IMG/VR virus record: IMGVR_UViG_3300045988_158927
Span: 1-64,000 of that record
Direction: 5' to 3' (one strand)
Source of the DNA: a virus
Length of the DNA: 64,000 nucleotides
In this document: positions 14,056 through 63,842 of the stretch, piece by piece
Layout of the letters: every line of letters begins with the position of its first letter
Position numbering within the stretch: position 1 is the stretch's first letter
Notes under the pieces: generated by a model
Database searches by the model: none
Told to the model about the DNA's origin: nothing
What the model saw: the letters and a program-made list of their open reading frames with translations, nothing else
Translations under genes and position numbers: made by a program

Positions 14056-14511
14056 ATGCGTATCAGTGACCTTGTTACGCGATGGGCCAGAAACTTCCGG
14101 CCCGTCGGGAACCTTCTGGAAGAGCCGATCATCTTGGGTTGCGCAATCCGTGCGGCAGAAACATACGCATCCCATGCGCCCCTTAAATCGCAAAACTTCC
14201 AAGCGTCGGATCAGTTTCTGAACGAATCGACGGATATCACGCCTTCGGAATGGGGGCTGATTGAGCCGCTCTTCCTTCTCTATATCGAGAAAGAAGAATC
14301 GGTCTATATCGACGCGATGAAACAGTTTGGCGGTGACATTGAGCGCCGTACAAACAGCGAGATTTCCCAAGATATCGAGCGGTATCTCGACGGGCTTCCG
14401 CGCAAGAGCTTCATGCAAGGCCCGATCTCACTGCAAATTCCGGAACCTTACGGCATTGATCGTCATGGGTTCCTTTGCCCGATGCAAATTCAGGTGATTC
14501 CGCGCCCATGA
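14056..14511 (+). CDS. hypothetical structural-module protein
   Basis: G-rich RBS. Translationally coupled to the next gene (ATGA). Confidence 0.5.
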   Translation: MRISDLVTRWARNFRPVGNLLEEPIILGCAIRAAETYASHAPLKSQNFQASDQFLNESTDITPSEWGLIEPLFLLYIEKEESVYIDAMKQFGGDIERRTNSEISQDIERYLDGLPRKSFMQGPISLQIPEPYGIDRHGFLCPMQIQVIPRP

Positions 14512-15362
14512 TCACGATTGAGAACGGAAGAACTCTGCAAAATACTGTCGTTGTGTCTCTGGTTATTCGCAGCGACAGTAGCCCCATTCCGATCACCATG
14601 GAGGCAGACATTCGCGCCTTGGATGGCGTGGAAAAGTGGATGGAAGAAGGGCGCACGGTATCGGTCGGTAAGTACGAATTCGAGATTGTGAAAAGCCGCC
14701 TAGCGTCCGGACTGGTCCAGCAGGGGGACAAGGACACGGGCGGCTTTGCAATCACCTGCCTGATGAAGGGCACAAAGAGCATCGCCCTTCCGATGGTCCG
14801 GAATGTCTTCAAAGAGAAGCCCACGATTCAAGACTGCTATCGGCTTTCTGGTTCGCAAGCTAACGTCTTTGGTAATGTCATGGGGCAGCGTTTTGCATTG
14901 CTTCGCGGCGACCTGCCGACACCGATGATCAACCGGGTATTGCAGGAATCCGGGGCAATCGTTCGCTGGAAGAAGGGCAAGATTCAGGCGCTAACCTATC
15001 CGGAAATCGTCGCCCAAAAGCCGATCCGGTTTCTGCCAGACATTCAGGGGGCAGATGATGAAATGACGTTCGTTGCGCGAAACGAAATGCCGCAATACGT
15101 GTCCATTGATGAGAATCGGAACGTTGTGCAGGTTGCGCGTAGTGTGCCATCCCCGGTCTATTTCATCCCGCACCACGATGCACGTAGCGTGCGCCTGATG
15201 CAGCAGACGATCATCCAGCGACGGGTAGCAAAGATCATGCTGGACATGAACATAGACGCCGGGGATATCGTGGACGTGAACGGGGAGAAGTTGATCGTCG
15301 TTACGGCCGCGCACGTGCCGATTGATGGATACACGAAACTTTGGTTAGGGAGCGTTGAATGA
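14508..15362 (+). CDS. baseplate hub protein (P2 gpD / Mu gp44-like)
   Basis: ATGA-coupled start. The C-terminus DAGDIVDVNGEKLIVVTAAHVPIDGYTKLWLG resembles the conserved end of late-control-D/hub proteins. It directly precedes a spike gene. Confidence 0.55.
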   Translation: MITIENGRTLQNTVVVSLVIRSDSSPIPITMEADIRALDGVEKWMEEGRTVSVGKYEFEIVKSRLASGLVQQGDKDTGGFAITCLMKGTKSIALPMVRNVFKEKPTIQDCYRLSGSQANVFGNVMGQRFALLRGDLPTPMINRVLQESGAIVRWKKGKIQALTYPEIVAQKPIRFLPDIQGADDEMTFVARNEMPQYVSIDENRNVVQVARSVPSPVYFIPHHDARSVRLMQQTIIQRRVAKIMLDMNIDAGDIVDVNGEKLIVVTAAHVPIDGYTKLWLGSVE

Positions 15363-15979
15363 GCGGATTTTTCCCGGGCGTGGTGGCGAGCTATGACAAA
15401 GTCAAGCGGTTAGTTACCGTAACGATTCCGGGGCTTGCTGACACGCCAGTGCCGGCCGAGCTGATGTATTCGCTTGGCGACAGGGCCACCCCGATTGCCT
15501 CGGGGCTGGCCACTGAAATCGAGATCGTCCCCGGGGATCATGTCTGGCTGCAATTCATCGGCGGAGATTCCCGCTATCCGCTTGTGGTGGGGTTCCGAAA
15601 TCCGCAAATAGGAAACAGTGTCGATTGGCGGGCGTGGCACCACAAAAACATCATGCTCAAGGCTGATGAAGAGATCGTCATCGACACGCCGGGTACGGTG
15701 AGGATTACGGGCAGCGAAGCCGTTAGGGTCATTACGAAGGTTGCGCACGTCACAGCTAGCGAGAGTGCCACGATCAAAAGCCAAAGCGTGATGATCGATG
15801 CCCCGGCGACGACGTGCAATGGTGCGTTGTCGGTCTCCGGGGCGTTAACAGTTAACGGTGGCGCGGCGATCTCTGGCGGAAGTGGCGCGGTTGTCTCTGG
15901 CACGATGAACGTCGTTGGCGCTATTGCCGTTCAAGGCACGATCAAGGCGTCCGGTTCCATCCGCGAGAATTCGCCTTAA
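15359..15979 (+). CDS. baseplate central spike (gpV / gp45 / VgrG-OB like)
   Basis: N-terminal OB-fold pattern FFPGVVASYDKVKRLVTVTIPGL...GDHVWLQFIGGDSRYPLVVG, then beta-helical repeats (VRITGSEAVRVITKVAHVTASESATIKSQSVMIDAP...). Confidence 0.75.
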   Translation: MSGFFPGVVASYDKVKRLVTVTIPGLADTPVPAELMYSLGDRATPIASGLATEIEIVPGDHVWLQFIGGDSRYPLVVGFRNPQIGNSVDWRAWHHKNIMLKADEEIVIDTPGTVRITGSEAVRVITKVAHVTASESATIKSQSVMIDAPATTCNGALSVSGALTVNGGAAISGGSGAVVSGTMNVVGAIAVQGTIKASGSIRENSP

Positions 15980-16257
15980 AGGGACGCCGCGTAGTTCTCA
16001 AAACTGGCCGTCAGTGTGGCGGCCTTTCTCGGGCTTCGGTCGGCCTTTCGATTGCGGTACGTTTCTTTGGCGGCCATCACTTCATCCCGCGGCCAATACT
16101 GGGAGCCGTTCTTTAGCAGCGGCGTTTTCAGTACACCCTGTTTAACAAGTTTCGAGAGATTCCCGCGTGTGCAGCCGAGCATTTCCGCGACAAGGGATGC
16201 CGGAACAATGTTTACAGTGTGAACCATTGCCGCTGTTTCATCTTGATTGGTTTCCAT
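15976..16257 (-). CDS. small HTH DNA-binding protein (MerR/excisionase-like)
   Basis: ASLVAEMLGCTRGNLSKLVKQGVL helix-turn-helix. The stop overlaps the convergent spike-gene stop (TTAA). The start is uncertain (16257 or 16227). Confidence 0.55.
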   Translation of the reverse strand: METNQDETAAMVHTVNIVPASLVAEMLGCTRGNLSKLVKQGVLKTPLLKNGSQYWPRDEVMAAKETYRNRKADRSPRKAATLTASFENYAASL

Positions 16258-16805
16258 TCCTTGACGATGATTTGTCGAATGGGGTGATTGTCGATCTCAT
16301 CGCCGGCTTGCTTTCGCTTGGACGCATTCTCGCCGCGCACGATGCCGTACCGCTTGATGCGCGTCTTGATGACGCTAATGGAAAGCCCGGTCTCTTCGGA
16401 AATCTCAACGAGCGTCCGGCCTTCTTCGTTGATCAGGCGTTCCAGCATGTTCCGTTCTTTGGCCTCGGCGGCAGCGCGTTCCGGTGAGATGTTGCGCTTT
16501 CTCTCTCGCGGCTTTTGTTCGATTCCGAGCTTTCGCAGGTATTTGTTGACCTGCCCCCGGGTCACGCCGAGGAATGTGGCGATTTCATCCGTACTCATCC
16601 CCTGCTGGGTGTAGCAATGATCAACGTATTTGAGCTTCTGGATACCTTCCAGTTTGCGCTTTGTTCCCCCGGGATTACGCATCGCCTTGTAGTAGGTATC
16701 ACGATTGACTCCGGTACCCTCAAGCGCCTGATTCAGGGACATTCCAGCATCGCGGCGTTTGTTAATGGTATCGATGATCTCTTGTGCAAAATCAGTAGAT
16801 TCCAT
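16212..16805 (-). CDS. DNA-binding protein with three tandem HTH modules
   Basis: MSLNQALEGTGVNRDTYYKAM, MSTDEIATFLGVTRGQVNKYLRKLG, RTLVEISEETGLSISVIKTRIKRYG. Confidence 0.6.
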   Translation of the reverse strand: MESTDFAQEIIDTINKRRDAGMSLNQALEGTGVNRDTYYKAMRNPGGTKRKLEGIQKLKYVDHCYTQQGMSTDEIATFLGVTRGQVNKYLRKLGIEQKPRERKRNISPERAAAEAKERNMLERLINEEGRTLVEISEETGLSISVIKTRIKRYGIVRGENASKRKQAGDEIDNHPIRQIIVKEWKPIKMKQRQWFTL

Positions 16806-17256
16806 GCTTTGCCATCCGTTCCATGCGGTTGATTCGCTCTTCCAGAGCGGAGATCAATTGTTCCTTGTGCTGGAAGACAGGACTTTGGTGCTGCGACGCC
16901 AGCAGCGTGCCGCTTTTGATGCGTGAAATAATGGCGTTATCGTAGACACCGACCTTTTGAGCCGTTCGCCTGATCGACCATCCCTTGCCCATGAGGTCAA
17001 CGATCATATCTAGCTGATCTTGCGTCATCCGCTTACCAGACGGTCGCGCCTGACGTTTTGTCCCTGTCTCTTCTTCGGCGCGGTTCAGAGATACGTAAAC
17101 CGTGGCCTCACTCATCCCGAACTCTTCAGCCAATTGCTTGATGGACAGGCCGTCGTTATGACGGTCGAGAACCCGGCGAACGAACGCCGAACGGACGCCC
17201 GTAACCTTCTCGCAGATGTTGTTGGATTTGACGTTGGAATCGATGGTGATATTCAT
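16792..17256 (-). CDS. DNA-binding protein with two HTH modules
   Basis: LSIKQLAEEFGMSEATVYVSLNRA and WSIRRTAQKVGVYDNAIISRIKSG. Confidence 0.6.
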   Translation of the reverse strand: MNITIDSNVKSNNICEKVTGVRSAFVRRVLDRHNDGLSIKQLAEEFGMSEATVYVSLNRAEEETGTKRQARPSGKRMTQDQLDMIVDLMGKGWSIRRTAQKVGVYDNAIISRIKSGTLLASQHQSPVFQHKEQLISALEERINRMERMAKHGIY

Positions 17257-17549
17257 TGGTTGTTGTCCATGATGTACTGAAGGAACCCGGCAAAGACGAG
17301 GGATTTGTTGTCGATGTGCAGGGATTGATGAACCGGGGAACTGACGAGCAACCCCCAGAGTTTGCCGTAGCGGATGATCTTTACACCGGGCTTGCTAGAT
17401 GCCACGATGGTTGGATGTTCGGTGAAAACTTCACTCATGAGCCGTCCGAACGCTTGCGATGCTTTGTGTTCGTTCGGAAACTTGCGCTCTTCCTGAATGC
17501 TCTTGCCGTCGAAGATTCGGACAGTTGAATGATGACGCTGGATGTTCAT
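17253..17549 (-). CDS. hypothetical protein
   Basis: 98-aa ORF, RBS GGAAAG, stop/start coupled to the downstream gene. Confidence 0.5.
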   Translation of the reverse strand: MNIQRHHSTVRIFDGKSIQEERKFPNEHKASQAFGRLMSEVFTEHPTIVASSKPGVKIIRYGKLWGLLVSSPVHQSLHIDNKSLVFAGFLQYIMDNNQ

Positions 17550-17597
17550 GTTCTTTCCGTGGGATTGTGGCCCGCCTTCCGACGGGCCGATGGTTGA

Positions 17598-17858
17598 TTA
17601 TTTGGCGTCTTTCATGACGACAAAGTACGTATTGCCTTTGTCCTCGTAGAATCCGCAGTTATTCGCACCATCGATGCATTCGAGATCGCCGGCGAAGCTG
17701 TCCATGATCTCCCGGTCAATCGTCACACGGCCGACACCGATAGCGTGGCCATAGTCGATATGCCGGATTTCTTCTTTGACGATTTGCGCATCCTTGATGC
17801 TGTAGTGATTTTTCATCAGCATCATAGTCAGGCGTACGGTGCGTTGTTGCTTGTTCAT
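17598..17858 (-). CDS. hypothetical protein
   Basis: 86-aa ORF with RBS GGAG, downstream of a sigma70-like promoter. Confidence 0.55.
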   Translation of the reverse strand: MNKQQRTVRLTMMLMKNHYSIKDAQIVKEEIRHIDYGHAIGVGRVTIDREIMDSFAGDLECIDGANNCGFYEDKGNTYFVVMKDAK

Positions 17859-17906
17859 GGTTCTACTCCGTTGGAAGTGTGTAGCGCGTAGTGCGCTGTC
17901 TGTTGA

Positions 17907-17935
17907 TGGAGATGATTACACCACACCTATTTTTA
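17907..17935 (-). promoter_or_regulatory. sigma70-like promoter (leftward)
   Basis: The minus strand reads TTGCAT (17935-17930), a 17-nt spacer, then TGTAAT (17912-17907). It lies ~50 nt upstream of the 17858 start. Confidence 0.55.
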
Positions 17936-17971
17936 GAATGCAACCCCCGCCGACGGACGGTTGTTGTATTG

Positions 17972-18247
17972 CTACACGCCCTCTCCGTTCAGGCGCTTGT
18001 CTACCAGAGCAGCGTAGCCGGCGATGTCGTGCCAGCTATCCGCATAGCGCGGGTCTCCGTTGAGGATACGGGCAATCTTGTGCTGGATCATGTCGAGCGC
18101 CTCGGCCATGTCCGGGTCCAGATTGTTCCAGTTATGGGATTGCCGCATCAGGCCCTTCAGTGTCTGCGAGATGCTGGCCTGCCCGGCGAATGAGCCATAG
18201 CGTGCGCCGCGAGCGTTCAGAGTGCTTGAAACGTCGGTCATTGTCAT
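17972..18247 (-). CDS. conserved phage protein (DUF6378-like, tentative)
   Basis: Pattern RGARYGSF...NL...DMIQHKIARIL.GD....DSWHDIAGYA. RBS GGAG. Confidence 0.45.
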   Translation of the reverse strand: MTMTDVSSTLNARGARYGSFAGQASISQTLKGLMRQSHNWNNLDPDMAEALDMIQHKIARILNGDPRYADSWHDIAGYAALVDKRLNGEGV

Positions 18248-18293
18248 TTCTCCATATATTCACGCCATGAATACATAGCGTAAGTGATTGAAT

Positions 18294-18620
18294 TCAATCG
18301 GGTTTTATTACAAACTCGATATCGTGGATTGCGGCAGGGATGGCCTTGTCAGCCAAGATCGCCGCGTCCATGCCGTGCCACACCTCCCTATTGGCAGCGT
18401 AGACGAGCATGTAGATCGGGGCGAGGTCGCGTGCGCGTAACGGGTACTCGCGCATGAGGAAGGCGGCCATCTTGGCAGATTTTTCGGACCCATTGACACG
18501 GAATTCATCCATGAATTCGCGCCCATCGTCGAGGCGCCAGCGGTACCGGAAGGAACCGTCTGGCGCTTCTTCAATGTTGGCGGCCCGCCCCCTGCAAAGC
18601 AGGTATTGCGCCTTGTCCAT
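18294..18620 (-). CDS. hypothetical protein
   Basis: 108-aa ORF starting 3 nt after the upstream stop. The overlapping 157-aa ORF in another frame is judged spurious. Confidence 0.5.
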   Translation of the reverse strand: MDKAQYLLCRGRAANIEEAPDGSFRYRWRLDDGREFMDEFRVNGSEKSAKMAAFLMREYPLRARDLAPIYMLVYAANREVWHGMDAAILADKAIPAAIHDIEFVIKPD

Positions 18621-18623: not shown

Positions 18624-19553
18624 TCAATCCAGACGGTAGTAACGGTAGACAACCGACGGGGGAACCCACGTTGACGGATCAAGATTGAGCATCGCGCACG
18701 TCTCTTCCCATTTGACCTTAGCCGTTTCGTCGTGGGCGTCAGCCGTATAGAACTCCGGAAAGTCTTTATAGAACGCGACAAGGTGCGGGTCTTTCTCGGA
18801 GAGCTTCATCTTCGCCGGCCGGCCGCGCTTGCGCTTGAATTCTTCTTTCATTTCCTCGCCTTCTTCCTGCCAATGGGCGGGCATACCGTCCATTTGCAAC
18901 TCTTCGACAGACTTCCGATTCGGGGCGGTTCCGGGGCGTGCCAGCGACCATCCGCGACGCGAGTAATAGAGCGTCATGATCCCAGAGACATGCCTTGGCA
19001 ACCCGAACGGGTTGTTTTTGAGGTCAACGTGAACCCGGATGACGTTCTTAGTATCGACAAGCTTGGCAATGGCGTTGTCACGCAGCCAATAGACAAGCTT
19101 GATCAATTCCTCCGTACTCATCTTGTTAACGACACGGAAGCTACCCAACTCCGGGTCATGTTTCTTGCGCGGGGCCTTGTATTCCTGCACTTCGGTGGCG
19201 GTTTCGGTGGTGGTGGTTTCCATTTTCTTTGGTCTACCTCGACGGTTTGGGGTTTGAGTGAGACGCCGGTAAATCTCTGATGCCGGCCCTGTTTTGATCG
19301 TTACTTCTCCGTTTGCACCGTTATAGATCATGGCCATCCCTCGCCCGTCCGGTGTCGTGATGATCTCGACAGCAAGATGGTTTTTATGATCCAAAAATCG
19401 ATCACGCATCGCGCCGGACGATTGCTTGCCCATGACCTCAAATGCCTTGCAGAACGCTTGGTATGGCAGTGAATCCATGGACGAGAACGTAATGGATGTG
19501 ACAGGCGAGGATGACATGGACCGGGTCCCTATAGACGGCAAACGGGTGAGCAT
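18624..19553 (-). CDS. basic protein with two AT-hook motifs
   Basis: PNRRGRPKKM and KRKRGRPAKM (GRP cores flanked by K/R). It is the first gene of the leftward arm next to the iteron module. The start codon is uncertain (19565 GTG, 19553, 19478 or 19430). Confidence 0.5.
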   Translation of the reverse strand: MLTRLPSIGTRSMSSSPVTSITFSSMDSLPYQAFCKAFEVMGKQSSGAMRDRFLDHKNHLAVEIITTPDGRGMAMIYNGANGEVTIKTGPASEIYRRLTQTPNRRGRPKKMETTTTETATEVQEYKAPRKKHDPELGSFRVVNKMSTEELIKLVYWLRDNAIAKLVDTKNVIRVHVDLKNNPFGLPRHVSGIMTLYYSRRGWSLARPGTAPNRKSVEELQMDGMPAHWQEEGEEMKEEFKRKRGRPAKMKLSEKDPHLVAFYKDFPEFYTADAHDETAKVKWEETCAMLNLDPSTWVPPSVVYRYYRLD

Positions 19554-19688
19554 AGTACCGCGCACTACCCCACAGTGTCAAGCCGTAGCGTTTCGTATTG
19601 TTGCGAATGTCGCAAAGTTACCAAAAGATTCACGCCGATAGATAGCGCCGACAGAACGCGCCATGACCGCTTCGAAAATACACACTTC

Positions 19689-20077
19689 AAAATTGGCGGT
19701 AATTTTTCTTACCCCCCTTCCTCCGAGTAGTTAGACCCCTAAGCAATCACGTCGAAAAAATTGGCGGTAAATTTTCAGACATGAGTTCAACATGAGTTGA
19801 ACATTTAACGAACATTTATTCAACATGGTTTCAACGTTGCGTATCGTTTTAGAAAGAACAAGGAAATTGGCGGTAATTTTTCTCTCAACGTACATCAACG
19901 TGATAAACGAGAATTGTTCTCGTGTGTCTCACAAGATTTAAATAATTCTCCAAAAATTACCGCCAATTTTTCTCTCACGTTTCGCAATCTTAAAATTCGA
20001 TTAAGGCCCGAAACGGGGGTTCTTGTCATTTTTCCACACATTGAAATCTTGAGTGAAAAATTACCGCCAATTTTTTC
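19689..20077. repeat. iteron set: GAAAATTGGCGGTAATTTTTC x3 forward, x2 inverted
   Basis: Forward copies at 19689-19708, 19757-19776 and 19863-19882. Inverted copies (GAAAAATTACCGCCAATTTTTC) at 19952-19972 and 20055-20077. Confidence 0.9.
19781..19835 (+). repeat. five tandem 11-bp units, consensus ATGAGTTCAAC
   Basis: ATGAGTTCAAC ATGAGTTGAAC ATTTAACGAAC ATTTATTCAAC ATGGTTTCAAC, with one unit per helical turn. Confidence 0.85.
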
Positions 20078-20638
20078 AACGTGCAATTTCAATTGTTAAA
20101 TCGAGGATTCATGCGGGTTTCCGGGCGGTGCGGCATAGTTTTTGACATTGTTAAATCTCATTAAACGAATTTCTATTTTTTTTCTTCGTGAGGACCAGAT
20201 ATAAAAAAAGGTTTTTTCAAGATACCCCTATATATAGGGGTAGGTGGAAACACATGAAATTGCCGGGAGCCTCGGTCGGTGGTTCGGGTTGTCCGCCGGC
20301 TCACCCCGGGGGGGGGAGGGGGGTGGAAATATTGCCCGCATCCTGCCGACTACGAGCGGTCGAGACCCGGGGTATCTGGTGCGGGGAATTCGGGCGGAAT
20401 TATTTGGGATGCATCCGGGAATTCGGCTCGAATTATTCGGGGTGAGAGCTGCCAGAGATCAGGCGCTCTCATTGGTAGAGAGGACGGGGCTACCAAACGG
20501 ACCTGACGGTCCGGCTCTACTGTCTCGGCTCTCTATAGATAGGCGGTCAGTGCCGGTTGCTGGGAAGCGTCAGCGATCTTGACTAGCCGGCCGGTCTCGT
20601 GGGACCATAGATACATCCACTTCACTTTGGAAGAATCC

Positions 20639-23191
20639 ATGAGCTACGAGAACATCATCAAGGTACTGAACCCTAACGCCCCGGTCTGGGCCGTCACGTC
20701 GGCTACTCGCACGACGACGATGAATCCGAAACAACCCTATGTCATCGACAGGGACGGCAAGCCGTCTTTGGTACGGCCTGGGGACTGGGCGTCGCGACTG
20801 TATGACCTGCTGGACTGGATCGAGACCAAGCCTGCATCACGTCAGAAGAATCTGCGCATCGGCGCGTTCCTGACCAGAGAGGACGGTATCTGCATCCTTG
20901 ACGTGAAACTTGATGCCGACGGCAACCTGCCAGAGGACGTGGCCAAGATGCTGGCCGATGAGCCGACATACGCTGAATACACGACAGACCGCAAGGCCGT
21001 GCATATCTGGGGCTATGAGGCTGTGAAAGGGCTGGATGTGGTCGATCATCCGTCCATCAATTACTACACGTCCGGTTTCGTCGTTGTCACGGGCGACGGG
21101 TACGTTATGGACGGTATCGACTATTCGACGTTCCCGATTGGCATGGGGTCTCTGTCGATGGTCGCAAATTTCCTCGGCGCCAACCCGACGGAACAAGATC
21201 GAATTAACTACGCGCTGCTGGACGCGCCGCAGGATTCGAGCGACGAGGATGTAATCAAGCGGCTGCCAGACTGGACGAACGACATTGCCCTGTTCAATGC
21301 TGATGAAATCGCAGTGTTCTATGGGTCTGTCGGCGCTGCCCGCGCTCACGTCATCCGCGACATTCTGTCGATCAGCGGGAACGTTGCGCAAACCGTGCGT
21401 GTGGCGATGGCCAGATTCCCCCACGTTTTCGATGACCGTGCCAAAACTCTGTTGACGGTCCAGAACATCGGAAACTGCATGACAATCGAGAGCCGGCACT
21501 ACTATGACGAGGTGATGCGGCAGCAGAGCGAGGTATACGAGCCATACGGTGAGCTATTCGTGCCGTCATGGGTTCTTGAGGAAGGGGGTAAGGTGGATGC
21601 CTTGCCGGAAGAAAAAACGCCGCCAGAGCCCGCTATTCAAGCCGCAGAGGCATCGCCTAAAACCGTTGACGCTCTTCCAGCCGTCCCAGACAGTGAAGCC
21701 GAGCAGGAAGAGCTGTTTACCGGGGCTGCGCGGCTTTCCGGCGTGGACCTGTACGCCGACATTGCAGATACCCCCTTCGGACGGGCCATTACGGAAATGT
21801 CCCAGCGGATAACGGCCGACGGCGCGCCTATCCGTCTCTCGTATCTGATCGGCGCCATGCTGGGCGTGGCCTCGGGCCTGCTTGGGCGGCGCTACACGTC
21901 CGGGAAATTGTTCCAGCATCGGCAAGTGGGCAGTCTTTACGTCTCGATTGTCGGCGCGCCGGGCGTGGGGAAATCGTCTTCTTTCTCTCCATACATGCGG
22001 CTTGTCGGTCGCGAGCTGGACAAAGAGATCAAGGGGCAAGTCATCCCGTTTATCAATACGTTCCCTACCACAATGACGCAGTTTTACCCCTTTGCGATTG
22101 CCGCGCCGTCATCGTGCATCTACGTGGAAGACCAGAGCAAATTTTTCACAATGGCCAAGCTTTCCGATAACTACACTACGGAAACATTCCACGACATCAT
22201 GCGGTTTAGATTCGATGCAGCATCGGATAACGTGATGTGTTATAACCCGGTACGAGGCGGGAAGATCATGCAATTCCCGCGCTATTACACGTTCTCGGTT
22301 GTTGCCGATACGCAGATCGGGCCGTTTGTTCAATTCGTCTGCAATCGGGAGGTGTCGAGCAGCGGTCTGCTGTCTCGTATCTTGCCCATCATCGAGCAGC
22401 GCGGGCCGTCGGATAGCGTGTCGGATGATTACGTGGAGCCCGGTACGGTCGAGCGGCATATCTACCATCTTGCCCATGCTTACCTTGCGTCCAATCGCCC
22501 GTCGGAAGCGGAAGATGATGGATTCGAGCCGCCACGCTTCATCGAGCTTCAGTGTGAGCCCGAGGCGCTGGAATTGTTTCGGCATGGATTGAGTGTGTAT
22601 GAAAAAGTGCCGAGCTATAACAGTTTCGATAGTGACGCTCGCACTCGTATCGCCGCCCATAGCGCCAAGATCGCCCATATCGTCGCCGCCTATAATGCAG
22701 TGACCGAAGACGACAAGCCGCTTGTCACGTACCGGCTGATGCGCTGGGCAATGTCGTTTGTTCATGAGATGTTCATGCGCGCTGTCCCGATGTTCAATCT
22801 GGCCATCAACGGGGATGAGACCGCCATCATGAAGCGCGTGCTTTCGATGCTGGAAACGTATCGGAAGGACGGAACGATCAACGGCAAGCACTTCCAGAAC
22901 CGGCTAGGGATGAGGGTGCTTGATGCGTCGCAATGGCAGTTTTCAAACGAGATCATCCAGAAGATTTTTTCATCACTGGGGACCGTCGCAATCGGTCGAC
23001 AGACGTTAACTACGGCCTCGGTGCGAAACCTGTTGTCCCAAGGGAGGGGCGGAAATGGTATGCTTGTCGAATCAAAGCGGCAGGTGGATAGTGTGACGGG
23101 CATCATGTCTTCATGCTGGACCCTGAACCGCGACCTTATCCTGTTCCCGGAATTCCATATGCCCACGCTCTTCGAGGTCATCAACAAATGA
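20639..23191 (+). CDS. replication protein: primase-polymerase-like N-terminus fused to P-loop (DUF3987/D5-type) helicase-like domain
   Basis: RBS GGAAGAAT then ATG at 20639 (track start is TTG). N-terminal strands ICILDVKLD, KAVHIWGY and YYTSGFVVVTGDG. Walker A is VGAPGVGKSS. It sits next to the iteron module. Confidence 0.55.
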   Translation: MSYENIIKVLNPNAPVWAVTSATRTTTMNPKQPYVIDRDGKPSLVRPGDWASRLYDLLDWIETKPASRQKNLRIGAFLTREDGICILDVKLDADGNLPEDVAKMLADEPTYAEYTTDRKAVHIWGYEAVKGLDVVDHPSINYYTSGFVVVTGDGYVMDGIDYSTFPIGMGSLSMVANFLGANPTEQDRINYALLDAPQDSSDEDVIKRLPDWTNDIALFNADEIAVFYGSVGAARAHVIRDILSISGNVAQTVRVAMARFPHVFDDRAKTLLTVQNIGNCMTIESRHYYDEVMRQQSEVYEPYGELFVPSWVLEEGGKVDALPEEKTPPEPAIQAAEASPKTVDALPAVPDSEAEQEELFTGAARLSGVDLYADIADTPFGRAITEMSQRITADGAPIRLSYLIGAMLGVASGLLGRRYTSGKLFQHRQVGSLYVSIVGAPGVGKSSSFSPYMRLVGRELDKEIKGQVIPFINTFPTTMTQFYPFAIAAPSSCIYVEDQSKFFTMAKLSDNYTTETFHDIMRFRFDAASDNVMCYNPVRGGKIMQFPRYYTFSVVADTQIGPFVQFVCNREVSSSGLLSRILPIIEQRGPSDSVSDDYVEPGTVERHIYHLAHAYLASNRPSEAEDDGFEPPRFIELQCEPEALELFRHGLSVYEKVPSYNSFDSDARTRIAAHSAKIAHIVAAYNAVTEDDKPLVTYRLMRWAMSFVHEMFMRAVPMFNLAINGDETAIMKRVLSMLETYRKDGTINGKHFQNRLGMRVLDASQWQFSNEIIQKIFSSLGTVAIGRQTLTTASVRNLLSQGRGGNGMLVESKRQVDSVTGIMSSCWTLNRDLILFPEFHMPTLFEVINK

Positions 23192-25422
23192 CCGTTTCCC
23201 TCCGCTGGTATCAGCAAAACGCGGTTGATGCCGTCCTCAATACGGACCTCAAAAACCCGGTACTCGGCTTGCCGACGGGCTGCCACGCAGCAGGACATCC
23301 TATCCTCATGTTTGACGGCTCTATCAAGCGCGTTGAAGATGTGCGCGTAGGTGACGTTCTCATGGGGAATGATGGGACGCCGCGCAATGTTCTGATGTTG
23401 CGTGGTGGCCGGTCTCGTATGGTTCGTATCGAGGGCGACGGCTTGTCGTTCGTCGTGAACGAAGAGCATAAGCTTCCGGCCGTGTTTCGTGGGCGAGATT
23501 CCGTCTTCAAGGCAAAGAAACTGATCGGGCATCCGTTCCAGTTTTTTCGTAGCGTATCCGGCTCGATTGTTCGCATTGAGGGACGTGCTACGAGTGCACC
23601 CAAAGATTTCTTCTTCGGTTTCACTGTAGACGGCAATAACCGTTACCTCGATGGGAGTGGCGTCCATCATCGAAACAGTGGGAAAAGCCATACCGCTGCT
23701 GCCATCATCCGGAACATGCTCGATTCTGGCCGGATCAACCGGGCCGTCATCGCTACGCATACCGGCGTTCTGGTGGACCAAAACCATCAGGACTACGTGA
23801 CCCACTGGAAGAAGAGCGAGAGTGTTGGCGTCGTGTCGGCGTCCGTGTCCAGTAAGAAGGACTGGGCCGCTGACGTTGTGTTCGGTTCCGTCGGCACACT
23901 CATGCGCAACCCGGGGAAACTCGGGCCGCGTGACGTGCTGCTGATCGATGAATGCCATAGGGTGTCCTCGGACCCGAAAAGCGGTTACGCCACGCTGATC
24001 AATGCACTGCGCTACCATCGCCCGGAAATGCCCGTCATCGGCATGACCGCAACCTACTGGCGACTGGGCGAGGGGCTGCTATGGGAGGTCGAGAATCCGA
24101 TCTTCGACGGCATCGCCTACGATCTCTGCACTGGCCCGGATTTCACGCGCCTTGTCGATGAGGGATACCTCGCGCCGCTTGTCACGCAGGAAACGTCATC
24201 GCATGTTGACCTTTCCGGCGTTCGCACGCAGGCCGGGGATTTCAACCAAGCAGACCTGTCGGAAGCGGTTGAGCGTTCCGTGGCCGATGCCGTGCCCGAA
24301 TTCTTGGAACTGGCCAAGGACCGCAAACACGGTATGGTGTTTGTCGCCGGGACGGAAAATTGCGAGCGCGTATGCGAGGCCATCAACGAGAACGGAGAGA
24401 AAGCGATCTATGTTCACTCGAAGCTTTCGACCACCGAGAATCAGCGGCGCATCGCAGACTTCAAGGCCGGGGCGTACCGTTGGATTGTGTCCGATGCCTC
24501 ACTGACGACAGGCTTTAACTGCCCGGACGTTGACGTAATCGTGCTGCTGAAACCCACGAAATCATCGGCATCACACGTTCAGATGCTGGGCCGTGGCACG
24601 CGACCTTTCCCGGGCAAGATCAATTGCCTTGTGCTGGACTTTGCCGGGAACATCGGCCGCAATGGGCCAATCAACATGCCCGTCATCCCCAAAGGCGCGA
24701 AGGCCAGAGAGCGCGAGATCAAAGCGAACCTGCCGAAGGTAAAGACGTGCCCATCGTGCGGCCTCGATAACGACATTGATGCGGACGTGTGTGCGAACGT
24801 TGCGTGTGGCTTCCGCTTCCCGCCCGTCGATGAAAAAGAACTGCTGGTAGCTGCCAAGGCATCGAACTTGAAAGCCATGGTTGTCCAGCGCCACCGCTAC
24901 ATCAATCCTTCCAAACTTTGGTTATGGCACGGCCGCACGCATGATGCCGGCGTGCTGATGAACAAAACCGGAATGCGCTTCCTGAAGATCGGGTTGGCCG
25001 GGAAATTTGGCTACACGCTGAATGCCAAGGCCGTGAACGATTTGGGCTATCCGTCGATTGATGAGGCAGTGACCCGCATCACGGAAGAAGGGTTCAATGT
25101 CGGCGCCGTTGCTTGGGATACTGACGTGGAAAAGTACCCGAAGAAGGCCCGGAATGCCGGCGAGGTGAACCCGCGTGACCTGTATTGGTTCCCGCTGATC
25201 AACGGGGAATGCCGTACCGCCTTCATCGCGTCCGTGTGCAGTGAGAAACCGATCAGTATCGACCTGATCAAGCGTGGCGCCGAAATTGTCGGGGTGAAGC
25301 ACGTGCATCATTCCTATATCCAAGAGCAGGCCCGCCTAGTGCGCGTTGCTATGCAAAAGCGTCATATCCCGGTAACATCCGATTCCGTCGCCAAGTACAT
25401 CGATTCCATCAACCAAGACTGA
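23188..25422 (+). CDS. SF2 (DEAH-type) DNA helicase, interrupted by a mini-intein
   Basis: ATGA-coupled start. Motif I is split (GLPTG | intein | SGKSHTAA). Motif II is LLIDECH, motif III GMTAT, motif VI QMLGRGTR. A C-terminal Zn-ribbon reads CPSCG...CANVAC. Confidence 0.85.
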   Translation: MTVSLRWYQQNAVDAVLNTDLKNPVLGLPTGCHAAGHPILMFDGSIKRVEDVRVGDVLMGNDGTPRNVLMLRGGRSRMVRIEGDGLSFVVNEEHKLPAVFRGRDSVFKAKKLIGHPFQFFRSVSGSIVRIEGRATSAPKDFFFGFTVDGNNRYLDGSGVHHRNSGKSHTAAAIIRNMLDSGRINRAVIATHTGVLVDQNHQDYVTHWKKSESVGVVSASVSSKKDWAADVVFGSVGTLMRNPGKLGPRDVLLIDECHRVSSDPKSGYATLINALRYHRPEMPVIGMTATYWRLGEGLLWEVENPIFDGIAYDLCTGPDFTRLVDEGYLAPLVTQETSSHVDLSGVRTQAGDFNQADLSEAVERSVADAVPEFLELAKDRKHGMVFVAGTENCERVCEAINENGEKAIYVHSKLSTTENQRRIADFKAGAYRWIVSDASLTTGFNCPDVDVIVLLKPTKSSASHVQMLGRGTRPFPGKINCLVLDFAGNIGRNGPINMPVIPKGAKAREREIKANLPKVKTCPSCGLDNDIDADVCANVACGFRFPPVDEKELLVAAKASNLKAMVVQRHRYINPSKLWLWHGRTHDAGVLMNKTGMRFLKIGLAGKFGYTLNAKAVNDLGYPSIDEAVTRITEEGFNVGAVAWDTDVEKYPKKARNAGEVNPRDLYWFPLINGECRTAFIASVCSEKPISIDLIKRGAEIVGVKHVHHSYIQEQARLVRVAMQKRHIPVTSDSVAKYIDSINQD
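23281..23676 (+). mobile_element. 132-aa mini-intein (Hint domain only) in the helicase P-loop
   Basis: It starts with Cys (CHAAGHPILMFDG, block A). The block B-like segment is VVNEEHKLPAV. The block F/G-like segment is FFFGFTVDGNNRYLDGSGVHHRN, followed by the +1 Ser of SGKS. Removal restores PTGSGKS. Confidence 0.8.
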
Positions 25423-54533: not shown

Positions 54534-57500
54534 ATGACAGTTATTGAGAAGCTGAAGCTGATCAAAAACCTGAAAGCTGCACAAGCCCTTCCCCGCGACA
54601 CGATCCCTCAACGCCTCGCACGAATCAAGGCCATCAAGGCCGCGCTTGATGCGCTCAAAGGGGCAAAGGCTGAGGAACGTACCGCCGAGAAGGAATCCGT
54701 AGAAGCAGCGTTCAAGTTTGATGCAGAACGCAAGACCGCCGAACGCAAGAAGGCCAATGATGCGGCCTATGCGCTGCTGCAAAGCCTCGATGAGGGCAAG
54801 ACACTCACCGAAGAAGAAAAGGCCGTGCTGGCAGCGTATAGCGGTTGCGGCGGCGGTCTGATCAACCCGCTTACCGGAAAGACGGGCAGCGCGACGGAAT
54901 ACTACACGCCGAAGCCTATCGTCTCGGGCATGTGGGACATGCTGGGCGAATCGTTCGGGTTCAAAGGCGGTAAAGTGCTGGACCCGAGTAGCGGTACCGG
55001 CATTTTTGGGGCGACGGCGCCAAAGGGTGTCGTTATGCAAAGCGTGGAAATCAGCGAGGTTTCCGGCAAGATCAACAAGGCGCTTAACTCGAAAACCGGC
55101 AATAACGTTGCCATCGAGCCGTTCGAGGGCTTCGCAGCGCGCACGCCTGACGGCACGTTCGATGCTCTGGTAACTAACGTTCCGTTCGGTGATTCCGGTA
55201 TCCGGACTGCCAAAGGAATGGACCAGAAATATCAGGATCAAAGCCTGCAAGGCTACTTCCTGCTGCGCGGCCTCGATAAGCTGAAGCCGGGCGGCCTGAT
55301 GGCCGTGATTCTGCCGGGTAGTGTCGTTGCCAATCGTGGGGCACGTGAAACCAAAGTGCGGACCATGATCAGCCTGAAGGCCGAATTTTGCGGCGCCATC
55401 CGCTTGCCTAACAGTGTCTTTGAGACAACCGGCGCTGACGTGATTACGGACGTTGCCGTATTCAAGAAACACGGGACTGACGCGGCTGAAAAGATTGATG
55501 CTCTTTTCCGTGCGGGAAAATCCGATGAACTGCGAGAAATGGGCGTTCTCTATGAGGAATTCATCGACGGCAATTGGTTCAAGGGCGAAGGACGCAAGTA
55601 CCTGCACGGCGAGGAAGTGACCGTTAACGGGCGCTGGGGCGAGACGCAGAAAGTCGTTTCAACCAAAAGCGTTACGGAAATCGGCCCCCTGCTGCGAGAG
55701 CTTCGCTTCAAATCGCGCATCAACTGGGATGCTCTGGGGGCGGCTGATGTAAGCCTTGCCTATGACGTGGGCGACGAGATTACGGCACCAGATGGCACAC
55801 TGATGCGCTGGGACGGTGAAACGTTCGTGGAGGTCCAGCGCGCCGAAGCGAAGGTCAACCCGTTTGCCAAGGTCATCGAGGCAATGGACCTGACCGCGCT
55901 TCAGTTCTACTACGCAGACTTCAGTGACGATGAGGTGGCCGGCGCGCTGCAATACGTTGCAGACAATAACGTATCCGTCAAACCATGGGTCAATACGCTG
56001 AACCTTGGCAAGCGCATTGATGTTCTCGTTTGCGCGGCCGTCGAAGCGTTCGATGAGAAAGCCCCGACCGATAACCTTGGTGAAGAGCATCCGCGCCTGA
56101 CCGAGGACGTGCAAGCTTCCATCAAGGCAGCACGCAACGTCACGCCGAAAGAGAGCGCGAAAGGCGTCTACAACCGATTCAAGGCGTTTACCGATAGTGG
56201 CGTTCTGTCGCCCGTTTGGTTCGGGCAGGTGGCCGAGCTGAAGACTATCGAGAGCAATGCAGCCAAATTCGAGGTCGCAAAAGGCAGTCAGAAATGGGTC
56301 GGCATCAATGAGATGCGCAAAGCCGGCATTGACGTTGACGGTGAAGAATTCGTCCACAACGGCGACAAGGTTGCGCTGATGGATGAGGTCTGCACTGGCA
56401 AGGCCGCTGAAGTTATCGAGGCACTGAAGAACGCTGACGTACCGCCTGAGCGCAAAGCCCGTCAGATCGCGCTTGCGATGGAACGTATCGAGAAAATCGA
56501 CGTTTCCAAGATGATCTTTACGCTTACGACGAAGTACGTGTCAGCGGATGCTAAGGCGGAATTCCTGACCCTGTACGTGAGCAAATCGAACTATTCAGGC
56601 TTCCAAGCGCATGATGACATTGTTGTGCTGCCGGCGTCTGAGGTAAAGTATGTAGCGTTCGGGAACGTTGACAAACTGTTCGTGCGCGCACTTGTCGGCT
56701 ACGTGAACGATGGTCGCGTGTCGTTCGGGAACCTGAAGATTGACGGCGTTTCTGATGATGAGCAAAAGCAGGCGAAGCGCGACCTTCTCGACGACTATCG
56801 TAAGTACCTGAACAAGCTTGATACGCAATTCAACCTGTGGGTTCACTCGAATCGTGCGCTGAAAACCGCGCTGGATATCCGCCTGAATTCGGCTGAGAAC
56901 GCCTTCTTCAAAACGCAAGCCAGCGACGGCCCGCTGACGATTCCCGGCCTGTCCGGTGATATCCAACTGCACGGCTATCAGCGCGCTTTCGTGCGCAAGA
57001 TCGCAGCGCGATTCAATGGCATCAACTCGTTCGATGTGGGCCTCGGCAAGAGTTTCACGGCACTGGCCAGCGTGCAGTATGCGCAAGCCATCGGCGCGAA
57101 GAAAAAGACCGTTTTCGTCGTGCCAAAGTCCGTCATCACAAACTGGGTGAAGGAAGCCAACCGCCTGTTTTCCGCTGACGTTGCCAATGACATTCTGGTA
57201 GTCGGTGCCGTCGAGAAGAAAGGAAAGCTTGACGTTGATTCCAAGCGATTCGACGCAGATTTGCAGCGCATCGCGGATAACGTTCACTCGAAGATTTTCA
57301 TGACGGCCGAAGCATTCCAGCGTATCCGCATCCGGGAAGAGGATGTTAAGGAATATCTGGACGCCATGCGCCTGAACGACCGCGATGCTTACGGGGACAA
57401 AATTTCTGACGCTGATAGCAATCGTGTAGAAAGCCGTCTGTATGCCATCGAGAAGATTCTCACGGAAGACGGCAAGAGCGAAGGCGCGCCGTTTTGGCAT

Positions 57501-61916: not shown

Positions 61917-61944
61917 GGGGAGGCTTGTGCCTCCCCTTTTTTTT
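61917..61944 (+). terminator. rho-independent terminator
   Basis: GGGGAGGC-ttgt-GCCTCCCC followed by T8. Confidence 0.85.
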
Positions 61945-61952
61945 ACCCGTAC

Positions 61953-61979
61953 CGATTGTTTCGATAATCGAGACAATCG
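61953..61979. promoter_or_regulatory. 27-bp near-perfect palindrome (operator-like)
   Basis: CGATTGTTTCGAT A ATCGAGACAATCG, 12 of 13 positions symmetric. It lies between a terminator and the next RBS. Confidence 0.5.
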
Positions 61980-62011
61980 ATTGTTACGCAAAACGGAACA
62001 ATGAGGAAGAA

Positions 62012-62847: not shown

Positions 62848-62871
62848 AGCCCGCCGAGTGCGGGCTTTTTT
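62848..62871 (+). terminator. rho-independent terminator
   Basis: AGCCCGC-cgagt-GCGGGCT followed by TTTTT. Confidence 0.85.
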
Positions 62872-63315: not shown

Positions 63316-63842
63316 ATATGTTAAATCGAATTGTTAAACGAGTGTTTATGCGGTTCTTCAGGCGTCGGACACAAAATTTAACGTTGTTAAAAAGTATTTT
63401 CCGAATTTCTATTTTTTTCTGTCGTGAGGGTCAGATATGAAAAAAGGTTTTTTTGAATAGACCCCTATATATATAAGGGGGAGAAATTAGGGAAATTGCC
63501 CCGAGCCCCCCCCCGGAAGCGCGCACGGATGGGGCGTCTCTCACCCCGGGGGGAGGGGGGGGGAATATTGCCGGCGAATTACGGAGGGGGTAGGAAAAAT
63601 TCGGGGAAATTAGAGCAGGAATTTCCGGGCCGTGCGATGGCCTCGGGGAGGTCTGCCAGAGGAACGGGCGATGGGGCGGAAGCCCCTACTCTGGAAGAGA
63701 CCGCCGACGCATCGATGCCGGACCTGCTGGCGCGTGTCTGTCCACGTCATCCGTCTGTAGCTTGTGAGGCACGTTGGGTTGACGGCAGGCCGGGTACTAG
63801 AGAGAATGCAGCCATCCCACACACAAGCCGATGAGGCCAACC

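Follow-up and report, generated by a model that had tools for sequence, protein, structure and literature searches.

The O protein of phage lambda binds its iterons through its N-terminal half, and natural origin-specificity variants exist among lambda relatives. In lambdoid phages, a single protein, CI, acts at two clusters of sites, OL and OR, and operators and repressors swap together among immunity regions, such that sites and DNA-binding domain switch jointly between related phages. Dispersed arrays of repeated sites bound by one protein also occur in P1 (incC/incA) and N15 (the dispersed centromeres). Phage P4 needs two separate cis regions, ori and crr, with repeated short sites, and Ziegelin and colleagues reportedly found in 1993 that the P4 primase-helicase itself recognizes the origin. 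This D5/DUF3987-type alpha primase-helicase drives P4 replication (PMC8628076). For phage SPP1, a published account describes two distant origin regions, oriL and oriR, of like organization (repeats plus AT-rich DNA) and both bound by gp38; one lies in the early replication region and the other in a late-region intergenic gap bracketed by transcription signals (PMC3485210). It proposes a role for oriR in the theta-to-sigma switch and describes the use of SPP1's own helicase, the host polymerase, and an annealase plus exonuclease (PMC3485210).

We analyzed a 64-kb window (the whole 64,000-nt stretch of DNA examined here) from an uncultured gut phage of ~88 kb. The window contains two related modules of ~630-650 bp per copy, separated by 43.3 kb, and each carries five copies of a short site whose probable binder is encoded beside module 1. 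Domain searches bore out the gene neighborhood given in the initial annotation, which placed an AT-hook protein gene of a leftward operon to the left of module 1 and a primase-helicase gene (20639-23191) to its right. Module 1 and its flanks contain the following features.

18624 to 19517, minus strand: gene for the 297-aa AT-hook protein, first gene of the early leftward operon; candidate binder
19552 to 19581, minus strand: conserved sigma70-like promoter TTGACA-18-TACTAT of the leftward operon, ~110 bp outside site 1
19689 to 19708, plus strand: site 1, AAAATT-GGCGGTAA-TTTTTC, core 19695-19702
19757 to 19776, plus strand: site 2, core 19763-19770
19779 to 19838, plus strand: 11-bp phased repeat array between sites 2 and 3, five to six copies of the ACATGAGTTCA type
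19863 to 19882, plus strand: site 3, core 19869-19876
19917 to 19949: nearly invariant block TTCTCGTGTGTCTCACAAGATTTAAATAATTCT in the spacer separating sites 3 and 4, which converge; contains TGTG-TCT-CACA and an AT-rich stretch
19952 to 19973, minus strand: site 4, core inverted (TTACCGCC), 19957-19964
19998 to 20021: conserved block CGATTAAGGCCCGAAACGGGGGTT, a small hairpin with a T-run after it, between sites 4 and 5
20055 to 20077, minus strand: site 5, core inverted, 20061-20068
20080 to 20224: AT-rich right arm, up to 77% A+T per 40-bp window, with two ATTGTTAAATC repeats (20092 and 20147), T8, and A7-GG-T6
20225 to 20240: perfect palindrome CCCCTATATATAGGGG, with a module 2 equivalent at 63462-63481
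20304 to 20336, plus strand: CCCC-G9-A-G6 tract followed by GGAAATATTGCC, the right limit of the sequence shared with module 2
20340 to 20638, plus strand: GC-rich spacer private to module 1 and absent from module 2, with two 28-nt direct repeats and a sigma70-like promoter
20579 to 20608, plus strand: sigma70-like promoter TTGACT (20579-20584) -18- GACCAT (20603-20608), just before the primase ATG
20639 to 23191, plus strand: primase plus DUF3987/D5-type helicase, not linked to core type

Five copies of AAATT-GGCGGTAA-TTTTT, three forward and two inverted, span 19689-20077, with exact matches to ATTGGCGGTAA at 19692, 19760, and 19866 (plus strand) and at 19957 and 20061 (minus strand). When up to one mismatch was allowed, ATTGGCGGTAA had 11 matches in the 64-kb window compared to 0.86 expected, and 11 was reached in 0 of 100 shuffles. 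The sites are non-random and restricted to two clusters of the window. The count and orientations in the initial description of five 20-mers held, but the unit quoted there is 21 nt long, and all five copies have in common only AAATTGGCGGTAA and a T-run. The unit is best described as AAATT-N8-TTTTT, in which a nearly palindromic A/T frame surrounds an asymmetric 8-bp core that can lie in either orientation. Five sites of 18-20 bp are kept in every related module copy examined, and the 3+2 arrangement holds in every complete copy from related contigs. Only relative L062, which has just two copies of the 11-bp repeat, shows a shorter spacing between sites 2 and 3 (54 bp, still in helical phase).

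The remaining elements that had been annotated from the letters alone were also recovered: a repeat search placed the phased 11-mers at 19779-19838, the palindrome is present, the long G-tracts correspond to G9-A-G6 at 20308-20323, and the direct-repeat pair near 20384-20441 consists of two 28-nt units (20384-20411 and 20417-20444, 82% identity). Windows of 40 bp reach 70-77% A+T at 19910-19950, at 20130-20210, and at matching places in module 2, and the right arm is a candidate DNA-unwinding region. The region had been said to hold no credible ORF. Mechanical ORFs of 55-65 aa do occur within 19731-20099, but they are broken into 33-39-aa pieces in module 2, and indels between the modules are not multiples of three; the region is non-coding. 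ORFs of 112 aa follow each module (20244-20582 and 63496-63834), but their translations are unrelated low-complexity sequence. We also discarded a structured RNA in 20335-20640, which folds but gains no support from its covariation term (+1.59), and a sigma54-type promoter near GAAATTGCC, whose spacing, judged by eye, does not fit. Rfam at gathering score and tRNA/tmRNA scans of the window gave no match.

A search for further copies of the repeat, which the initial annotation had suggested, revealed the second five-site cluster (62951-63309). Module 2 lies amid late genes, between a terminator and a promoter.

62848 to 62866, plus strand: intrinsic terminator directly left of module 2, closing the operon that ends in a PmgG-like gene
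62948 to 63572, plus strand: module 2, paralogue of 19687-20336, inside the late region
63779 to 63807, plus strand: sigma70-like promoter TTGACG-17-GAGAAT for the operon starting at ATG 63843, outside the shared module

The module 2 cores lie at 62951, 63007, and 63113 (plus strand) and at 63194 and 63299 (minus strand). All five are identical to those of module 1, compared to ~72-76% identity in the scaffold, and the two modules share the 3+2 order and the ~10-turn spacings (106 and 104-105 bp). An array of 11-mers, a TATA palindrome, and a G6-A-G9 tract are likewise present in module 2. An 88-kb relative has two exact matches to the 17-mer site pattern, and a half-genome contig of 45.9 kb has such matches nowhere but at its ends. 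As these matches fall at the two module positions only, there are two modules per ~88-kb genome, nearly antipodal on the circle (43 versus ~45 kb). Module 2 of the window shares 92-95% identity with the module 1 copies found in other genomes, indicating exchange between the two positions. Among assemblies, many half contigs of 42-43 kb or 45-46 kb end in the modules, and in one contig (L057) the sequence flanking module 1 on the left is fused to that flanking module 2 on the right; full contigs of 88-90 kb, which run through one module and stop at the other, are equally common. Breakage into 43-kb and 45-kb halves is what a two-copy repeat in a circular genome gives.

Comparison of related contigs revealed two core types. 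Type A cores read GGCGGTAA, while some relatives carry type B cores, (A/G)(G/A)TCATCT. In type B relatives, all five cores have changed together and the scaffold between sites is unchanged. Within one genome (about five genomes), the core type of module 2 follows that of module 1, and both types co-occur in one sample. Across 14 aligned module copies, 40 columns separate A from B; the five cores account for ~30 of these, and there are none to the right of 20085. Both kinds of natural chimera occur: in module 1 of the window, a B-like scaffold surrounds A cores, and in L072, B cores are joined to an A-like right arm. The L072 pairing led us to reject the right arm (the block TCGTGAGG..CAGATAT and the palindrome length) as type-linked.

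Core type matched the type of the N-terminal domain of the 297-aa protein in 17 of 17 contigs. Site type forecast from the protein N terminus before the DNA was seen was correct for L063-L068 and L070-L072; in one tally, three of the 17 matching contigs are counted as predicted in advance. The segment that tracks type is the first ~75 residues, the sole such segment among the protein segments that could be compared. When ten proteins were compared (at least four genomes per type), type-separating columns were found only in the 297-aa protein, which has 36, all in aa 20-90 of the 313-aa ORF; its C-terminal variants are shuffled relative to N-terminal type. Because core type tracks this N-terminal segment, the sites are very probably the binding sites of the 297-aa AT-hook protein. 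Since the stretch encoding its N terminus is only ~170 bp away from module 1, part of the association with that module is due to physical linkage. Another type-linked protein could be encoded in the ~24 kb of genome beyond the window.

Other candidates for the binder did not survive larger comparisons. The initial annotation had taken the gene at 20639, the primase-helicase, as the initiator gene beside the iterons; the covariation points instead to the product of the gene at 18624. In two type A versus three type B genomes, the primase-helicase showed 62 separating columns at aa 426-577, but these vanished at four versus four, and the cluster was a mosaic segment. The eight other proteins likewise had zero type-separating columns with at least four genomes per type. 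The recognition helices of a helix-turn-helix protein (HTH-154, 16792-17256) seemed type-linked in four genomes, but L059 combines type A sites with a copy only 44% identical, and no column of this protein separated the types in the larger genome set.

The candidate binder, whose real start is the ATG at 19517, has at its N terminus an alpha/beta domain that is type-specific (about aa 4-88); the rest of the protein is highly conserved, and there are two AT-hooks with RGRP motifs (RRGRPKKM and KRGRPAKM). We infer that the variable domain reads the 8-bp core, with the AT-hooks sitting in the A/T frame. Searches of Pfam, PHROGs, and NCBIfam gave no match and no helix-turn-helix or other known regulator domain. 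The full-length structure model was poor (pLDDT 57); the N-terminal domain was modeled at pLDDT of about 85, with a predicted beta-alpha-beta4-alpha order. Foldseek searches of the binder models against PDB and BFVD gave nothing at E<1e-3, the best weak matches being RnlA/LsoA N-terminal domains. An exhaustive HMMER search of 1.84 billion representative proteins recovered only the protein's own family and one remote homologue (P0025). In an integrated P4-like element, the P0025 gene and a DUF3987 primase gene diverge from a spacer of 1.25 kb. That spacer has no iteron array like that of the modules; three copies of CGGTAATG were seen by eye. Searches for homologues of P0025 found none, and a reference-genome search with it was also empty.

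A reading that accommodates these data is that the module is the cis part of a phage replication-initiation system resembling SPP1 oriL/oriR with gp38, and we give it about even chances. It is supported by the cognate binder that natural covariation points to, the recognizable sigma70-like promoters lying outside the module, the position of the remote homologue opposite a DUF3987 primase, and the SPP1-like two-module layout. The initial iteron-origin proposal carries over in part, in that a factor encoded by the phage very probably binds the repeats and the layout (repeats, AT-rich DNA, a primase-helicase neighbor) fits; the association with replication genes is not unique, since the second copy lies in the late region. 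Module 1 adjoins the genes for the primase-helicase, a helicase, and a PriCT protein, and RecT-like annealase and exonuclease genes are present. GC skew was positive throughout the 64-kb window with no switch at either module, which excludes the signature of a bidirectional origin in long-term use, although replication in a unidirectional or rolling-circle mode would leave no such trace. There was no enrichment of DnaA boxes, with TTATCCACA at one mismatch matching once in the modules versus seven times elsewhere in the window.

On the origin reading, the 297-aa protein, made early, would bind the five sites of each module, and a protein-DNA complex would assemble there. Module 1, beside the primase/D5-helicase gene, would be the likely firing origin. 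The bound protein may bend and melt the adjacent AT-rich DNA, and its conserved C-terminal two-thirds may recruit the primase-helicase, the likely partner loaded at the module. We propose that the host polymerase would then copy the DNA, as no polymerase gene was seen in the 64-kb window. Module 2 would be a second origin-like site for the same protein, serving either as an alternative origin or to block forks and so trigger a theta to rolling-circle switch, the needs of which the RecT-like annealase and the exonucleases could supply. Core types A and B would then represent replication-specificity groups among co-occurring relatives.

A bolder version, which we consider doubtful, is that the 297-aa protein is the first member of a new class of origin-binding proteins, in which a small alpha/beta domain (possibly TBP-like) is combined with AT-hooks, and that it acts on a start-and-stall pair of modules. 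Replication would fire at the module beside the primase-helicase gene and be halted by the 297-aa protein half a genome away, at the second module, forcing rolling-circle replication. The A and B specificity groups would keep co-infecting relatives from titrating each other's initiator.

The main rival, which we consider less likely, is a role in transcription, with the arrays as operators or enhancers of a 297-aa transcription factor that acts at a distance or via an unrecognized promoter in the AT-rich/TATATA part. It would switch on or off two very long rightward operons, one at 20.6-62.8 kb and one from 63.8 kb on, and perhaps also the leftward operon to which its gene belongs, and A and B would be regulatory "immunity" types. 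A long rightward operon does follow directly on each module, module 2 being preceded by a terminator, and the first gene of an early operon with a host-type promoter could equally well encode a regulator. Concerted switching of sites and protein is also a hallmark of repressor-operator pairs, and in-phase ~10-turn spacings would suit cooperative binding or looping. A weak leftward match, TTAACA-18-AAAAAT, overlaps site 5 in both modules. The shared module, however, lacks a conserved rightward sigma70-like promoter. All three recognizable sigma70-like promoters of the flanking operons lie outside it in module-specific sequence, at least 110 bp (leftward, ~110 bp) and ~500 bp (rightward) from the nearest site. 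A ~650-bp scaffold that contains near-invariant blocks, with one stretch of 33 bp the same in nearly all copies, exceeds typical operator needs. The lack of a helix-turn-helix or known regulator domain in the binder, and the pairing of its only distant homologue with a primase-helicase gene, also argue against a transcription factor.

Persistence as a P1-like plasmid prophage, in which the modules would be partition sites or copy-number ("handcuffing") iteron arrays bound by the 297-aa protein, is unlikely. Genes resembling those of P1 are present (for a DarB-like protein of 2046 aa and a PmgG-like protein), no integrase was seen in the 64-kb window, and the contigs of the phage, at 88-90 kb, always stand alone and in no case form part of a bacterial contig; two dispersed arrays for one protein also recall P1 incC/incA or the N15 centromeres. 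Against this, the ~45 window ORFs scanned (64 kb of ~88 kb) include no ParA/ParB-type or plasmid Rep-type protein, there is no sign of lysogeny, and a primase query found no relative in 185,579 reference genomes. Phage GenBank records searched by DNA and by primase protein also yielded nothing, and the PmgG-like gene of the nearest cultured relative, Xanthomonas phage Rb1, has no such module next to it. Finally, directly repeated modules acting as resolution sites that split and rejoin the 88-kb circle (~43 + ~45 kb), or as terminase recognition sites, would account for the half contigs, the L057 junction, and the exchange between module positions, but this is very unlikely, as assemblers are expected to give half contigs at a two-copy repeat and full contigs are just as common, ordinary gene conversion explains the exchange, no recombinase gene adjoins either module, and distances of 13 kb (module 2) and 29 kb (module 1) separate the modules from the terminase genes.

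Whatever the role of the modules, the two protein types that pair with two 8-bp cores constitute a natural specificity swap. Since the other module parts and neighboring genes examined are shuffled between types, the recognition code of an uncharacterized protein family is open to direct testing through exchange of 75 residues or 8 bp, and core type provides a simple marker for sorting such phages into specificity groups. If the modules are origins, they offer a first handle on replication of a widespread ~88-kb phage of the human microbiome that lacks cultured relatives. They would also be a second dual-origin case, unrelated to SPP1 (the only dual-origin phage we identified), and would help test whether an initiator-bound second origin triggers the theta to rolling-circle switch.

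Compared to known systems, the locus resembles the lambdoid CI/OL/OR arrangement in having two clusters of repeated 17-20-bp sites for one phage protein, with sites and DNA-binding domain switching together. However, CI operators overlap promoters and lie 2-3 kb apart, whereas the sites here are at least 110-500 bp from recognizable promoters, the clusters are 43 kb apart, and the candidate binder has no helix-turn-helix domain. With P4, the phage shares a D5/DUF3987-type primase-helicase, and the binder's remote homologue is encoded in a P4-like element beside such a primase; unlike in P4, specificity here seems to reside in a separate protein, with no type-linked change in the primase-helicase. 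The lambda origin and O protein offer a parallel in their several ~19-bp repeated sites beside an AT-rich stretch, and the layout of O is matched by a variable N-terminal part that putatively binds DNA and a conserved remainder that would be free for helicase recruitment. Lambda differs in having a single origin, which lies within the O gene and holds four direct iterons, each an inverted repeat, whereas here there are two modules, each with five sites that have asymmetric cores and occur in two orientations, and an AT-hook binder unlike O.

The SPP1 dual origin differs in several respects: the candidate binder has no similarity to gp38 detectable with Pfam, PHROGs, or NCBIfam, so the two systems do not group by homology; oriL lies inside gene 38, whereas the module here is intergenic; SPP1 has direct repeats rather than a convergent 3+2 array, and a DnaB-like helicase with a loader rather than a D5/DUF3987 primase-helicase; and its origins are 13 kb apart, whereas the modules here are nearly antipodal (43 versus ~45 kb). 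Nonetheless, SPP1 shares with this phage two distant modules, one early beside replication genes and one in a late intergenic gap, together with a helicase of its own, a probable reliance on the host polymerase, and an annealase and an exonuclease. As in the SPP1-type dual origin, the two distant regions appear to be served by one protein.

The DNA belongs to an uncultured tailed phage that matched no GenBank phage by DNA or by primase protein, and none of the reference bacterial genomes carried the primase. As the initial annotation had proposed, a leftward operon that opens with the AT-hook gene and a rightward primase-helicase gene flank the candidate origin (module 1, 19687-20336). The leftward, early operon also encodes two HTH proteins and exonucleases. 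Rightward, a primase fused to a DUF3987/D5-type helicase is followed by an SNF2-like helicase with a Hint insertion, a PriCT-2 protein, a dUTPase, a thymidylate-synthase-like protein, a RecT-like annealase, small and large terminases, a DarB-like 2046-aa protein and a PmgG-like protein. Tail-fibre genes occupy 1-11 kb of the window. Beyond a second module (module 2, 62948-63572), a relative has small unknown genes for about 8 kb, followed by genes for baseplate and tail. The DarB-like methyltransferase/helicase (54534-60674) and the PmgG-like protein (61925-62824) recall phage P1; the window showed no genes for plasmid maintenance. Two + strand genes, at 14475-15979 in the otherwise leftward early region, encode a tail-protein-like product (phrog_1390) and a 206-aa protein with weak Phage_spike/DUF6484 matches. 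The SNF2/DEAD-like helicase (23113-25422) has its Hint (intein-type) segment at about aa 57-122. Since relatives matched over the full length (L051) or only from residue 189 (L053 and L052), and the annotated helicase is 612 aa in L070-L072, this insertion appears polymorphic within the phage group.

Module 1 had been described as holding a repeat in three forward and two inverted copies, phased 11-mers, a palindrome, a G-tract and two direct repeats, with no credible ORF. We recovered each feature:

19692, 19760, 19866 (+) and 19957, 20061 (-): exact copies of ATTGGCGGTAA
19779-19838: 11-bp phased repeats
20225-20240: palindrome
20308-20323: G9-A-G6 tract
20384-20444: two 28-nt direct repeats, right of module 1

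Allowing at most one mismatch, ATTGGCGGTAA had 11 matches in the whole window versus 0.86 expected, and 0 of 100 shuffles reached 11. Because the A/T flanks (AAATT...ATTTTTCT) were nearly alike in forward and inverted copies and the central bases alone were inverted (repeat finder, family D1), the site unit is AAATT-N8-TTTTT with the asymmetric 8-bp core GGCGGTAA. G+C falls to 36-40% at module 1, versus about 55% in its surroundings. ORFs of 55-65 aa within it lack conservation in the paralogous module 2, and the region is non-coding. The spacer before the primase gene (20340-20638; GC-rich, 300 bp) contains the direct repeats (GGGAATTCGG..GAATTATT.GGG) and several conserved hairpins, and is conserved among relatives to the same degree as coding DNA; covariation gave no support for RNA structure there.

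The initial annotation had suggested searching for further copies of the repeat, and the same scan revealed a second cluster at 62951-63309, with five exact cores at 62951, 63007, 63113 (+), 63194 and 63299 (-). Alignment showed that the modules are homologous from site 1 through GGAAATATTGCC past the G-tract (19687-20336 versus 62948-63572) and diverge outside this part. Both have the 3+2 site order, spacings of 106 bp between sites 2 and 3 and 104-105 bp between sites 4 and 5, the 11-mer array, several near-invariant blocks, the TATA palindrome and the G-tract. The G-tracts are mirror variants (G9-A-G6 at 20308-20323 and G6-A-G9 at 63548-63563), both on the non-template strand relative to rightward transcription; G-tract composition of this sort may promote R-loops or G-quadruplexes, as at origins that are primed by transcription. 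To the left of module 2, an intrinsic terminator (62848-62866) lies behind the PmgG-like gene, and to the right, after a GC-rich spacer similar in length to that of module 1 and different in sequence, a new rightward operon starts at 63843.

Within the window, module motifs (ATTGTTAAA, CCCCTATATA, AATATTGCC, CGATTAAG and others) were confined to the two modules. The exact 17-mer site pattern matched only at the two module positions in an 88-kb relative and only at the contig ends in a 45.9-kb half contig. Each genome thus carries two modules, almost opposite each other. Related contigs, drawn from human-associated and other metagenomes, were 88-90 kb or "halves" of 41-43 kb or 45-46 kb ending in modules. 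Full-length contigs break inside module 1 or module 2, which is how a genome that is circular or circularly permuted and contains a two-copy repeat would be expected to assemble. Half contigs occurred among the related contigs L057, L059-L061, L064, L067, L078, L079 and L081, and L074; one contig was 131 kb, and L057 has the left flank of module 1 on one side of its module and the right flank of module 2 on the other. The half contigs likely reflect assembly-graph behaviour at the repeat, though they could be real sub-genomic circles or concatemers.

In some relatives, all five cores read (A/G)(G/A)TCATCT (type B) in place of GGCGGTAA (type A), with positions and orientations unchanged. The scaffold is kept, including a 33-bp block (TTCTCGTGTGTCTCACAAGATTTAAATAATT..) that is identical in nearly all copies. 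Core type was concordant wherever both modules of one genome were visible: A/A in the window, in 3300011936_000004 and at both ends of the 45.9-kb half contig, and B/B in 3300019477_000118. The single hybrid module of L057 has five B cores. Across 14 module copies (9 A, 5 B), 40 columns separated the types, about 30 of them in the five cores and none right of 20085. The scaffold of window module 1 was 75-82% identical to type-B modules and 71-79% to type-A modules; its right arm is clearly B-like and its cores are 100% type A, while L072 has a type-A-like right arm and type-B cores. These are natural chimeras in both directions: recombination has uncoupled all but the cores from type. Such a pattern would be expected for binding sites of a trans-acting factor with two specificities. 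Further, module 1 of other type-A genomes was 92-95% identical to window module 2 and only 72-74% to window module 1; the two positions therefore exchange sequence (concerted evolution), and window module 1 is an unusual mosaic. Phages of both types occur together in one metagenome (IMG sample 3300045988; contigs 169252, 155630 and 164202), consistent with separate specificity groups able to coexist.

For genes to either side of module 1, we aligned the encoded proteins of type-A and type-B genomes and compared them column by column, using at least four genomes per type except for one protein with only two type-B copies. The ten proteins compared are all encoded in the window, beyond which the genome extends for about 24 kb. 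No type-separating columns were present in eight leftward-operon proteins (15359-18620) or in the primase-helicase (20639-23191, +). The 297-aa AT-hook protein (18624-19517, -) had 36, all at residues 20-90 of the 313-aa ORF (approximately aa 4-74 of the real protein). Its remainder is 90-100% conserved, including both RGRP AT-hooks and a nearly invariant block of about 90 residues, and the few variants in its C-terminal part are reshuffled with respect to N-terminal type. Two early leads, the 154-aa double-HTH protein (16792-17256) as the binder and a type-linked cluster in the primase, failed once more genomes were added. The double-HTH protein is hypervariable (44-93% identity where neighbouring genes have 85-98%), its variants do not track site type, and it may recognise a separate, likewise variable set of DNA targets.

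As a forward test, we sorted homologues of the AT-hook protein by N-terminal type and fetched their contigs afterwards. All those predicted to be B (P0016, P0017, P0018 and P0019) had type-B sites, and all those predicted to be A (P0006, P0008 and P0011) had type-A sites. Overall, N-terminal and site types agreed in 17/17 contigs, an association to which linkage contributes, as the N-terminal coding region is only about 170 bp from module 1; long-range concordance through module 2 comes from about five genomes. On these comparative grounds, the sites are very probably bound by the AT-hook protein, and it is established, or nearly so, that two modules are conserved and that each offers a phage protein five sites.

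The AT-hook protein matched nothing in Pfam, PHROG or NCBIfam. In a word-indexed search of 5.8 billion proteins, matches were limited to 23 clusters of this phage group, with identities of 75% or more. Exhaustive HMMER searching of 1.84 billion representatives yielded a single further, remote relative, P0025 (E = 1e-4, middle domain). The gene for P0025 belongs to a P4-like element integrated in bacterial DNA (771-kb contig L069, ERZ28642588 scaffold_3). It adjoins integrase and AlpA genes, and a 1.25-kb spacer separates it from a divergent DUF3987 primase-helicase gene. Three copies of CGGTAATG can be made out by eye on one strand of this spacer (L069 6752-8000), near 6999, 7237 and 7376. Both known contexts of the family (n = 2) thus pair it with a D5-type primase-helicase. 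The N-terminal domain is predicted to be beta-alpha-beta4-alpha (pLDDT about 85). Foldseek found nothing for it at E<1e-3; the weak best matches were RnlA/LsoA N-terminal domains, which we take to have a TBP-like fold with the same strand order, a hint only.

What would the protein-DNA complex do? We infer that a role in replication is favoured, and give about even chances that the modules are the origin system of the phage. Module 1 adjoins the replication genes, and the recognisable host-type promoters all fall outside the shared module:

19581-19552 (-): TTGACA-18-TACTAT, leftward operon; conserved in relatives
20579-20608: TTGACT-18-GACCAT, before the primase gene
63779-63807: TTGACG-17-GAGAAT, before the operon following module 2

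Also favouring replication are the variable N-terminal part and conserved remainder of the binder, a layout shared with lambda O; the position of P0025 opposite a primase-helicase gene; the helically phased sites, 11-bp array, AT-rich arms (70-77% A+T) and palindrome, which are usual at origins; and the close functional precedent of SPP1. The main rival, an array controlling transcription from a distance, is possible though less probable: each module heads a very long rightward operon and the binder, encoded at the start of the early operon, is an immediate-early product, but sites and promoters are separated by 110 to 500 bp, so the sites are not ordinary operators. Readings of the modules as sites for partition or copy control in a plasmid prophage, or for recombination or packaging, rank lower still in likelihood.

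Two results count against a role in replication. GC skew of the + strand was positive along the window (almost everywhere in 1-64000), including the leftward operon (11.3-19.5 kb), where AT skew flips. This suggests a strand bias independent of transcription direction, such as forks moving one way. The skew did not turn at either module, excluding a lasting bidirectional-origin signature; unidirectional or rolling-circle replication would give this result. DnaA boxes were not enriched in the modules.

The closest systems in function are SPP1 oriL/oriR with gp38, lambda ori with O, and P4 with its alpha primase-helicase, although homology places the binder in none of them. The N-terminal half of lambda O binds iterons, as is predicted for the variable N-terminal part here. 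In SPP1, gp38 binds two regions of like organization, oriL in the early replication region and oriR in a late-gene intergenic gap between transcription signals. Replication begins at oriL and is unidirectional; the proposal is that gp38 at oriR halts the fork and so causes a rolling-circle switch, helped by an exonuclease and an annealase, both kinds of which this phage encodes. New here are a binder family without known relatives that joins AT-hooks to a small alpha/beta domain, a 3+2 arrangement of five sites that is present twice at a distance of half a genome, and what appears to be a clean natural two-state specificity swap limited to 8 bp per site and about 75 protein residues. What draws attention is not so much that a phage has an origin as the protein-DNA recognition pair, ready for experiments, and the possible second example of a dual-origin phage.
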